This document shows positions 11,977-43,848 of a stretch of 64,000 nt of DNA, in pieces. The stretch lies in assembly GCF_055900595.2 (NCBI RefSeq), contig NZ_CM148325.1. The stretch is one strand, 5' to 3'. Every line of letters begins with the position of its first letter. Position 1 is the stretch's first letter. Both the position numbers and the translations under genes were made by a program. Below the pieces are notes generated by a model. The model saw only the letters and a list, made by a program, of their open reading frames with translations. It was not told where the DNA came from and ran no database searches.

Positions 11977-12094
11977 AATCTCGCGCTAACAACCTGGAAT
12001 CGAGCCGTCATACTACGGCGCAACGCCCTATAAAGTAAACGATGACCCTGCGGGAACTTCAGGGTAAAATGACTATCAAAATGTGAATTGCAGC

Positions 12095-12128
12095 TGACCT
12101 GGGACTTGTACCCGGGTCGGTATTTTTT
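12095..12128 (+). promoter_or_regulatory. Terminator-like hairpin plus T-run inside the greA leader (candidate GraL-type attenuator)
   Basis: gacctggg...cccgggtc stem followed by ttttttt, about 100 bp upstream of greA start. Confidence 0.4.
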
Positions 12129-22547: not shown

Positions 22548-22669
22548 CTTTCCCTTAGAGTCCTTTTTCAAATATACTGTGAAGACTTCGGCCTTCGTAG
22601 TGGGATTTGAAAAAATCCTTCTGGAAAGTGCTCCAGACCGCAGTTGCGGTTATAGGGTTCAGTTATATA

Positions 22670-22694
22670 AAGCCCCGATTTATCGGGGTTTTTT
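22670..22694 (+). terminator. Terminator/attenuator-like hairpin between metY and rimP
   Basis: aaagccccgatt-tatcggggtttttt. Confidence 0.5.
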
Positions 22695-22753
22695 GTTATC
22701 TGACTACAGAATAACTGGGCTTTAGGCCCTTTTTTTATGTCTTGGGGGTGGGC

Positions 22754-24745: not shown

Positions 24746-27418
24746 ATGACAGATGTAACGATTAAAACGCTGGCCGCAGAGCGACAGACCTCCGTGGAAC
24801 GCCTGGTACAGCAATTTGCTGATGCAGGTATCCGGAAGTCTGCTGACGACTCTGTGTCCGCACAAGAGAAACAGACTTTAATTGACCACCTGAATCAGAA
24901 AAATTCAGGCCCGGACAAATTAACGCTGCAACGTAAAACCCGCAGCACCCTTAACATTCCTGGTACCGGTGGAAAAAGCAAATCGGTACAAATCGAAGTC
25001 CGCAAGAAACGCACCTTTGTGAAACGCGATCCGCAAGAGGCTGAACGCCTTGCTGCGGAAGAGCAGGCGCAGCGTGAAGCGGAAGAGCAAGCCCGTCGTG
25101 AGGCAGAAGAATCGGCCAAACGCGAGGCGCAACAAAAAGCTGAACGTGAGGCCGCAGAACAAGCTAAGCGTGAAGCCGCTGAACAAGCGAAACGTGAAGC
25201 TGCGGAAAAAGACAAAGTGAGCAATCAACAAGACGATATGACTAAAAACGCCCAGGCTGAAAAAGCCCGCCGTGAGCAGGAAGCTGCAGAGCTCAAGCGT
25301 AAAGCTGAAGAAGAAGCGCGTCGTAAACTCGAAGAAGAAGCACGTCGCGTTGCTGAAGAAGCACGTCGTATGGCGGAAGAAAACAAATGGACTGATAACG
25401 CGGAACCGACTGAAGATTCCAGCGATTATCACGTTACTACTTCTCAACATGCTCGCCAGGCAGAAGACGAAAGCGATCGTGAAGTCGAAGGCGGCCGTGG
25501 CCGTGGTCGTAACGCGAAAGCAGCGCGTCCGAAGAAAGGCAACAAACACTCTGAATCAAAAGCTGATCGTGAAGAAGCACGCGCAGCAGTACGTGGCGGT
25601 AAAGGCGGGAAACGTAAAGGTTCTTCGCTGCAGCAAGGCTTCCAGAAGCCAGCTCAGGCCGTTAACCGTGACGTTGTGATTGGCGAAACCATCACCGTTG
25701 GCGAACTGGCGAACAAGATGGCGGTTAAAGGTTCTCAGGTCATCAAAGCGATGATGAAACTGGGCGCAATGGCAACCATCAACCAGGTTATCGATCAGGA
25801 AACCGCACAGCTGGTTGCTGAAGAGATGGGCCACAAAGTTATCCTGCGTCGTGAAAACGAGCTGGAAGAAGCGGTAATGAGCGACCGTGACACGGGTGCT
25901 GCGGCTGAACCGCGCGCGCCGGTTGTGACCATCATGGGTCACGTTGACCACGGTAAAACCTCTTTGCTGGACTACATTCGTTCAACGAAAGTGGCCTCTG
26001 GCGAAGCGGGCGGCATTACCCAGCACATTGGTGCATACCACGTTGAAACTGAAAACGGCATGATCACCTTCCTGGACACCCCGGGGCACGCCGCGTTTAC
26101 TTCAATGCGTGCACGTGGTGCGCAGGCAACGGACATCGTAGTCCTGGTTGTTGCTGCCGACGACGGCGTAATGCCGCAGACCATCGAAGCAATTCAGCAC
26201 GCGAAAGCGGCAGGCGTGCCGGTTGTGGTTGCAGTGAACAAGATCGACAAACCAGAAGCCGATCCAGATCGCGTTAAGAACGAACTCTCTCAGTACGGCA
26301 TCCTGCCGGAAGAGTGGGGCGGTGAAAGCCAGTTCGTACACGTGTCTGCGAAAGCAGGTACCGGTATCGATGAACTGCTGGACGCTATCCTGTTGCAGGC
26401 AGAAGTTCTGGAACTGAAAGCGGTACGTAAAGGTATGGCGAGCGGTGCGGTTATCGAATCCTTCCTCGATAAAGGTCGTGGTCCGGTTGCTACTGTTCTG
26501 GTACGTGAAGGTACTCTGCACAAGGGCGACATCGTTCTGTGTGGTTTCGAATACGGTCGTGTTCGCGCAATGCGTAACGAAATGGGTCAGGAAGTGCTGG
26601 AAGCAGGTCCGTCCATTCCAGTTGAAATCCTTGGCTTGTCCGGTGTTCCGGCAGCGGGTGACGAAGTTACCGTAGTGCGTGACGAGAAGAAAGCACGTGA
26701 AGTTGCACTGTATCGTCAGGGCAAATTCCGTGAAGTTAAACTGGCACGTCAGCAGAAATCGAAACTCGAGAACATGTTCGCCAACATGACCGAAGGCGAA
26801 GTTCACGAAGTGAACATCGTTCTGAAGGCAGACGTTCAGGGTTCCGTGGAAGCGATCTCCGACTCCTTGCTGAAACTGTCTACTGACGAAGTTAAAGTGA
26901 AGATTATCGGTTCTGGCGTAGGTGGTATCACCGAAACCGACGCTACCCTGGCTGCGGCGTCCAACGCCATCCTGGTTGGCTTCAACGTACGTGCTGATGC
27001 CTCTGCACGTAAAGTGATTGAAGCGGAAAGCCTGGATCTGCGTTACTACTCCGTCATCTATAACCTGATCGACGAAGTGAAAGCGGCGATGAGCGGTATG
27101 CTGTCTCCGGAACTGAAACAGCAGATTATCGGTCTGGCGGAAGTTCGTGATGTGTTCAAATCACCGAAATTTGGTGCCATCGCAGGTTGTATGGTTACTG
27201 AAGGTGTGGTTAAACGTCACAACCCGATCCGCGTTCTGCGCGACAACGTGGTTATCTACGAAGGCGAGCTGGAGTCCCTGCGCCGCTTCAAAGATGACGT
27301 TAACGAAGTCCGTAACGGTATGGAATGTGGTATCGGCGTTAAGAACTACAACGACGTCCGCACTGGCGATGTGATCGAAGTATTCGAAATCATCGAGATC
27401 CAACGTACCATCGCTTAA
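24746..27418 (+). CDS. infB: Translation initiation factor IF-2
   Basis: 890 aa ORF with E/A/R/K-rich N-terminal region and GTPase motifs ([18 protein letters not shown]). Confidence 0.95.
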
Positions 27419-27435
27419 GGTTTTTAGGGTTCTAT

Positions 27436-27510
27436 GCGGGATAAGGCGTTTACGCCGCATCCGGCATGGATTGCCTGATGCGACGCTGGCGCATCTTATC
27501 AGGCTACGTG
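27436..27510. repeat. REP (repetitive extragenic palindrome) elements between infB and rbfA
   Basis: gcgggataaggcgtttacgccgcatccggc... and ...gcctgatgcgacgctggcgcatcttatcaggc, typical REP sequence. Confidence 0.55.
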
Positions 27511-28978: not shown

Positions 28979-29344
<366 letters not shown>

Positions 29345-29360
29345 TTCTTGCGAGTTTCAG

Positions 29361-29387
29361 AAAAGGGGCCTGAGTGGCCCCTTTTTT
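29361..29387 (+). terminator. rpsO intrinsic terminator hairpin
   Basis: aaaaggggcc-tgag-tggcccctttttt. Confidence 0.65.
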
Positions 29388-29589
29388 CAAACTGACGGCA
29401 GCAATTCACTGGAAACTAATGTATTGTTGCTATGAATGATCTTCCGTTGCAGAGGTTCGCGCGGCTAATGAGAGGCTTTACCCACATTGGGCTGGGTTAG
29501 GGTTGTCATTAGTCGCGAGGATGCGCAGAAGATCGGGTATTAACACCAGTGCCGTAAGGTGCTGTCTAAGAAAGAGAAAGGATATTACA

Positions 29590-43673: not shown

Positions 43674-43848
43674 GTCGGATGCGGCGTAAACGCCTTATCC
43701 GACCTACGGTTTGCATCGTTGTAGGCCTGATAAGACGCGGCAAGCGTCGCATCAGGCAACGGCAGTCGGATGCGGCGCAGGCGCCTTATCCGACCTACGG
43801 TTTGCATCGTTGCAGGCCTGATAAGACGCGGCAAGCGTCGCATCAGGC
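43674..43848. repeat. Tandem BIME: two near-identical 84-bp REP-pair units at 91-bp period
   Basis: Unit 1 43674-43757 and unit 2 43765-43848, each gtcggatgcggcg...gccttatccgacctacggtttgcatcgttg.aggcctgataagacgcggcaagcgtcgcatcaggc. Confidence 0.7.

Follow-up and report, generated by a model that had tools for sequence, protein, structure and literature searches.

The repetitive N-terminal region of Escherichia coli IF2 probably comprises two old 24-nt repeat arrays that encode charged helices and undergo rare whole-unit indels

The window analysed here is a stretch of 64,000 nt from contig NZ_CM148325.1 (RefSeq assembly GCF_055900595.2), and the repeats described below lie in its infB gene. 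The 890-aa product matches the IF-2 equivalog TIGR00487 with an E-value of 2.5e-297 (987.5 bits against a cut-off of 424.4), and Pfam matches to IF2_N, IF2_assoc, GTP_EFTU and IF-2 were found in the same ORF. IF2_N occurs in two stretches, the best of which, the second copy, covers aa 314-364, while IF2_assoc covers aa 56-94. In the 100%-identical record NZ_CP027579.1, the gene is annotated as infB, with the product WP_000133051.1. The ORFs, the Rfam matches and the RefSeq annotation of this identical record place infB in the nusA-infB-rbfA operon, within the normal E. coli order metY-rimP-nusA-infB-rbfA-truB-rpsO-pnp. The neighbourhood reads argG (on the opposite strand), tRNA-Met, rimP leader, rimP, nusA, infB, rbfA, truB, S15 leader, rpsO, SraG and pnp. 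An earlier note on this DNA had named the gene infB, an identification that both the protein profiles and the operon context bear out.

Known RNA elements were found at their expected places in the window, namely the greA leader (12007-12128, +), the rimP leader (22636-22736, +), the S15 leader (29017-29131, +) and the SraG sRNA (29360-29531, -). The Rfam family naRNA4 (RF02564) gave two matches, one within the infB-rbfA spacer (27435-27505, +) and one at 43724-43795 (-). Over its first 955 nt, infB is 100% identical to that of E. coli strain 2013C-4282 and approximately 98.5% identical to that of K-12. This haplotype (24746-25700) is uncommon, with 18 of 5,425 E. coli genomes being at least 99% identical over these 955 nt and most genomes being approximately 98.1-98.5% identical.

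The earlier note had described imperfect tandem repeats at 25030-25400, which correspond to codons 95-219 of the 890-codon ORF, and had proposed a repeat finder as the check. Tandem Repeats Finder (TRF) detected three period-24 arrays (25055-25110, 25137-25211 and 25298-25361) and one period-21 array (25334-25381), so the periodicity is there. The 27-mer quoted in that note, gctgaacaagcgaaacgtgaagctgcg, is present once, at 25178, and the peptide motifs that it listed are also present: AEEQA (aa 104 and 112), REAEE (aa 110 and 118) and AKREAAEQ (aa 140). The features of the region are collected in Table 1.

Table 1. Coordinates, in the window, of infB and of the features of its repeat region
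Feature	Position	Strand	Evidence
infB CDS (IF2 alpha, 890 aa + stop)	24746..27418	+	ORF, TIGR00487, Pfam, RefSeq annotation
Helix A, predicted continuous alpha-helix (codons 96-159, 64 residues, ~96 A)	25031..25222	+	AlphaFold2, literature, charge pairs
Block A, seven 24-nt (8-aa) units U1-U7 (aa 99-154)	25040..25207	+	Register, lag identity, TRF period 24
U5-U7, units most alike in DNA (18-20/24 nt identical)	25136..25207	+	Unit identity matrix
Initiation region of internal GTG158 (U7 + AAAGACAAA), overlapping the last unit	25184..25216	+	Synonymous constraint, conservation, literature
GTG codon 158, start of IF2 beta (IF2-2)	25217..25219	+	Matches g474c, conservation
ATG codon 165, start of IF2 gamma (IF2-3)	25238..25240	+	Matches t494c, conservation
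Helix B, predicted alpha-helix (codons 166-217, 52 residues, ~78 A)	25241..25396	+	AlphaFold2 pLDDT 77-85, charge pairs
Block B, E/A/R/K repeats of mixed period (aa 171-212)	25256..25381	+	TRF arrays, lag statistics

The repeats form two blocks. Block A consists of octads in perfect register with the consensus QAKREAAE, and its identity reaches 0.67 at an amino-acid lag of 8 and 0.68 at a nucleotide lag of 24, values attained by none of 5000 codon shuffles. At an amino-acid lag of 7, identity is just 0.10, below that of 4981 of the 5000 shuffles. Block B, which is common to all three IF2 isoforms, mixes 24- and 21-nt units, with identities of 0.46 (lag 7) and 0.38 (lag 8), and this mixed signal arises because two 8-residue units are followed by a single 7-residue unit (AEEARRM). 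The repeat finder thus returned head-to-tail copies, and the lag statistics exceed a composition-preserving null; the comparison with codon shuffles therefore establishes that the periodicity is real, that it lies far above chance and that the repeat unit is an octad, not a heptad. Exact repetition is short: no exact direct repeat anywhere in the region exceeds 14 nt, the length of GAAGAAGCACGTCG, which occurs at 25334 and 25355 in block B.

AlphaFold2, run on a 30-species alignment, predicted two helices that correspond one-to-one with the two repeat blocks. For helix A, the pLDDT is 86-93 over residues 101-150. A break at residues 159-164 (pLDDT <50) separates it from helix B and accommodates the internal starts, and disorder is predicted at residues 217-261 and 285-305 (pLDDT <50). 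Among the 64 residues of helix A, 33 are charged, 18 are alanine and 2 are hydrophobic; helix B has 5 hydrophobic residues out of 52. Opposite-charge pairs spaced i/i+4 number 17 in helix A (7.9 +/- 2.2 in shuffles) and 20 in helix B (8.1 +/- 2.2), counts that none of 5000 shuffles reached in either case, and no same-charge i/i+4 pair occurs in either helix. The few hydrophobic residues show no enrichment at two heptad positions, and no hydrophobic a/d seam was found in either helix. Consequently, the designation of the repeats as 'heptad-like' in the earlier note has to be replaced, given the period of eight residues, the very low lag-7 identity of block A and the missing seam. Of the features of a heptad coiled coil, seven-residue periodicity is absent from block A, and hydrophobic a/d positions are absent from both helices.

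In the review by Gualerzi and Pon (2015, PMC4611024), which refers to the NMR work of Laursen et al. (2004), residues 98-157 of IF2 are a helix with a repetitive sequence, and this region is more mobile than the N1 subdomain; the title of the NMR paper, as given there, speaks of a 'flexible linker'. Charge content with dense i/i+4 pairing and a long uninterrupted helix, the latter indicated by AlphaFold2 and by the NMR literature, are the properties of ER/K single alpha-helix (SAH) domains, which the blocks resemble more than they resemble a coiled coil, and the helices may be stable as monomers. The NMR construct of IF2 Domain I reportedly ended at residue 157, and hence lacked helix B. Given the pTM of 0.27, the AlphaFold2 model itself leaves room for antiparallel packing of helix A on helix B. 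A Foldseek search against the PDB gave no match with an E-value of 0.001 or lower, which is unsurprising for a model that is extended and non-globular, and a sequence search of the PDB returned solely the full-length E. coli IF2 entries 3jcj, 3jcn, 5me0, 5me1 and 9h9h. Upstream of the repeats, AlphaFold2 placed a fairly confident beta-hairpin at 24917-25021 (aa 58-92, within IF2_assoc, PF08364), with strands at 58-71 and 79-92 and a pLDDT of approximately 81-87, whereas residues 51-97 are described as lacking regular structure in the NMR-based account (PMC4611024).

Besides full-length IF2 alpha, infB gives rise to the isoforms IF2 beta and gamma from internal in-frame starts (PMC12297416, PMC3334882), and an internal start in infB was observed by Ribo-RET, according to a preprint. 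The earlier note had mentioned such starts, and in the window they are GTG158 and ATG165, whose positions match the start-codon mutations g474c and t494c (Madison et al. 2012, PMC3334882). Our species comparison comprised 79 Enterobacteriaceae species, with GTG158 being GTG in 79/79 and ATG165 being ATG in 70/79. Synonymous codon diversity (H), calculated over the first 397 infB codons of these species in 10-codon windows, averaged 0.31. The lowest value, 0.04, was obtained for the window starting at codon 152, and values of 0.04-0.10 were obtained for those starting at codons 148-156, so that the minimum spans codons 148-162, from the 3' half of U7 through GTG158. Units U1-U6 are average in this respect (0.308 vs 0.306 overall). 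The 24 nt upstream of GTG158 are nearly identical in the 11 species listed.

IF2-2 can still be expressed after a deletion whose endpoint lies 32 nt before its start (PMC3334882), and these 32 nt correspond to U7 plus nine bases. Given this deletion endpoint and the synonymous constraint, the last repeat unit thus also serves, in the mRNA, as the region where ribosomes load for GTG158, a role for which the constraint was computed here and the function is taken from the literature. Both starts are conserved and the RNA upstream is constrained, as in an internal initiation site; that initiation takes place there is known from published work. No special RNA structure was detected at 25040-25300 (z = -0.42 vs shuffles), and in the minimum free energy (MFE) fold the bases immediately 5' of GTG158 are unpaired.

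The divergence between units and the correspondence of units between species bear on the age of the array. Codon positions 1 and 2 have a between-unit identity of 0.75 and 0.70, respectively, and position 3 one of only 0.36. When the units of the window were compared with those of the 67 other seven-unit species, identity was 0.89 for the orthologous unit and 0.60 for non-orthologous units, and each window unit had its orthologue as best match in 56 to 67 (varying with the unit) of these 67 species. Unit orthology and third-position divergence together indicate that the array predates the family and is maintained by selection at the protein level, without concerted evolution.

Block A has seven units in 68 of the 79 species and exactly eight in the remaining 11, which belong to Phytobacter, Kosakonia, Franconibacter, Siccibacter and Mangrovibacter and include an isolate labelled Enterobacter sp. 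kpr-6. Besides this 8-aa unit, the sole change in block A is a single-residue deletion at A103 in 3 species, and gaps in helix B are confined to position 169 and the C-terminal end. Gap columns fall mostly in linkers, that is, in the loop 160-165 (3 columns) and in the disordered segment 218-305 (15 columns), both of which coincide with AlphaFold low-confidence segments.

Within E. coli, we ranked 5,425 complete genomes and sampled 99 records at even steps down the rankings. All of them had the canonical infB span except N68 and one record cut by its origin. Variants were searched for with two synthetic alleles as queries, the first shortened and the second lengthened by one unit in each block; in a local test beforehand, any one-unit variant outranked the wild type with these queries. 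The resulting census gives minimum numbers, because an indel in U1 or U2 would fail to outrank the wild type if it lay on a K-12-like background. A concatenated query of 48 synthetic deletion and duplication junctions was dropped, because the units are so similar that alignments bridged the spacers and the wild type scored as high as 191 bits, with true alleles at 200-222. In the flank-difference matrix, the rows of the block B alleles and of N68 were left out (offset misalignment).

Indels were found in approximately 50 of the 5,425 records (~0.9%), representing approximately 21 strains (~0.4% of strains), with sizes of -96, -24, -21, +21, +24 and +48 nt, all of them whole-unit and in frame. 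In block A, 24 nt were lost in 6 strains and gained in 8, 48 nt were gained in one (OkiPb01695) and 96 nt were lost in one (N68). In the candidate allele of N68, exactly four units are missing, and the junction lies in AGCGTGAAGC, which is common to U2 and U6. Block B lacks 24 nt in 29 records, apparently of one clone (28 Esc isolates and CNR20191027), lacks 21 nt in 4 records from 3 strains and has gained 21 nt in one strain (CMZE046), the -21/+21 indels mapping to the 14-nt exact repeat. U5-U7 are the hot spot of the natural +/-24 and +48 nt indels, and in most block A events QAKREAAE goes from 2 copies to 1, 3 or 4. The 3' end of U7 and GTG158 are retained in all the indel alleles found.

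DNA junctions differ among strains with the same variant protein, which implies at least 12 independent events: WP_040062784.1 has different junctions in RMDEC364 and in bR_120_Kylling/EC130, and WP_000133053.1 arose via three DNA junction types. In a large protein collection, the exact variant proteins of 898, 882, 882 and 883 aa occur on 398, 353, 88 and 64 contigs, respectively, while each canonical 890-aa allele occurs on at least 1000, and since the variants recur on so many contigs, they are real and not assembly errors, the N68 allele being unique. The expectation in the earlier note of a length-variable site of strain-to-strain indels therefore stands in so far as whole-unit, in-frame indels recur; such indels are rare, however, and length is otherwise conserved, as the 99 sampled records illustrate. 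In E. coli Nissle 1917 (NZ_CP007799.1, 5112464-5113199), five places match the infB N-terminal region; the gene is annotated there as a truncated pseudogene with scrambled units, an arrangement that suggests a faulty assembly more than a natural allele.

Considering all of this, we regard it as highly probable that the segment is the known repetitive part of the E. coli IF2 N-terminal region, composed of two old 24-nt arrays that encode charged helices and undergo rare whole-unit indels. The two imperfect arrays would encode long, charged, alanine-rich helices at residues ~96-159 and 166-217. Helix A, exclusive to IF2 alpha, would join the N1 subdomain, which binds NusA according to the literature, to the rest of the factor; the most likely role of this helix is that of a semi-rigid spacer roughly 9 nm in length. 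The rare whole-unit, in-frame indels may stem from slippage or from unequal recombination, in either case between those adjacent units that are most alike; with 68% identity and no exact repeat longer than 14 nt, the units are too diverged for instability. Over 99% of E. coli genomes have the seven-unit length, as do 68 of the 79 related species, and this conservation is consistent with selection on length. On the other hand, the length is not strictly essential, since alleles of 3, 6, 8 and 9 units occur naturally and are apparently viable. That helix A is calibrated in length, with its seven octads setting the reach between the NusA-binding N1 and ribosome-bound IF2 alpha, is a tentative and rather unlikely proposal. 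If it were true, the 3-, 6-, 8- and 9-unit alleles would be expected to shift early transcription-translation coupling, growth in the cold or the IF2 alpha:beta ratio.

Two other structural readings of the encoded segment can be weighed against a pair of single helices. Two long predicted helices joined by a short loop, together with the partial 7-residue signal of block B, are what would be expected if heptad-like repeats formed a coiled coil, either as a dimer or as an intramolecular hairpin of helices A and B. We find this highly improbable, as block A has a clean 8-residue period with a lag-7 identity below nearly all shuffles, the 2 and 5 hydrophobic residues are not gathered in two heptad positions, and the lag-7 signal of block B is owed to its single 7-residue unit after two octads. 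Eight residues turn approximately 800 degrees, so that a stripe would drift by approximately 80 degrees per unit, and helix geometry therefore argues that a straight packing seam is impossible; moreover, the helix 98-157 was seen by NMR in Domain I, the N-terminal domain, according to PMC4611024. It is also distinctly unlikely that the segment is a low-complexity disordered linker, with a periodicity that follows from its composition and without a set structure or any constraint on length. The literature term 'flexible linker', the mobility of the region relative to N1 in that same account, a 2026 preprint in which IF2 extensions are enriched in disorder-promoting residues and the low pLDDT of the adjoining segments 217-261 and 285-305 agree with such a linker, but the periodicity survives the composition-preserving codon-shuffle null (0/5000), the helix is predicted with high confidence and, in PMC4611024, reported by NMR for 98-157, and unit number is kept in 68 of 79 species while between-species indels occur mostly in the truly disordered linkers.

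The remaining two readings concern the nucleic acid. The repeats might mainly serve the mRNA, their A/G-rich, weakly structured sequence with Shine-Dalgarno-like motifs enabling internal initiation of IF2 beta and gamma, and the strong synonymous constraint from U7 through codon 162, the unpaired stretch before GTG158 and the published work on the 32 nt upstream of the IF2-2 start (PMC3334882) point in this direction. As a reading of the whole array it is nevertheless very unlikely, with the constraint being limited to the last unit while U1-U6 are average, folding being the same as in shuffles and block B, downstream of the starts, repeating equally. The least plausible reading is a hypervariable, contingency-type repeat that changes copy number often and adaptively between strains, to which we attach an extremely low probability despite the at least 12 distinct junction types and the origin of the same variant proteins (WP_040062784.1, WP_000133053.1) from different junctions. 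Variants make up ~0.9% of records and ~0.4% of strains, the units are 68% identical with no exact repeat above 14 nt and are orthologous between genera, giving no indication of concerted evolution, and every change preserves the frame, which precludes on/off switching. The near-identical units, frequent copy-number changes and frameshift or promoter effects of a phase-variable locus were not found here.

The reading as two old, helix-encoding arrays agrees with previous descriptions. Domain I of E. coli K-12 IF2 (residues 98-157, PMC4611024) is the same segment, K-12 being identical to the window over aa 86-225, and nothing substantive differs. Domain I is exclusive to IF2 alpha and binds NusA (PMC12297416). 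By its description, the 'Type 5' IF2 architecture of Fer et al. also matches the layout predicted here, with the N1 fold followed by long helices and then by the second IF2_N at aa 314-364. The repetitive helix and the internal starts of infB have been described before in all essentials, and since both are textbook material, the region carries little weight as a discovery. What is added to prior IF2 work is the 8-residue period, the orthology of the units, the map of synonymous constraint and the census of natural copy-number alleles.

ER/K single alpha-helices are known from myosin VI and X, caldesmon and the synthetic (E4K4)n, the last of which has a period of 8 residues. Like these domains, the IF2 segment is more than 50% charged, is dense in i/i+4 E-R/K pairs, lacks a hydrophobic seam and is predicted to form a long, uninterrupted helix. 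It is richer in alanine and glutamine than classic SAHs, and its rigid, monomeric state is putative. In a literature search, we found no paper joining CSAH with IF-2 and none linking a single alpha-helix to bacterial IF2. The recognition of the repeat as an octad with single-alpha-helix character, in correction of a heptad coiled coil, is worth keeping. The catalogue of rare natural alleles, with 3-9 units in block A and one unit more or fewer in block B, could provide a ready series for the question of linker length between N1 and the core.

With regard to internal initiation, GTG158 and ATG165 (IF2-2 and IF2-3) stand at the published positions, with no difference. The addition made here, also worth keeping, is the overlap of the initiation region with U7, which is under strong synonymous constraint and forms part of the stretch where this constraint is strongest within the first 397 codons. 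A second patch of low synonymous diversity was observed in U2/U3, at 25067-25099 (codons 108-118), where H is approximately 0.10 vs the mean of 0.31; among the 79 species, A112 is encoded by GCG in 79, E114 by GAG in 68 and A116 by GCC in 71.
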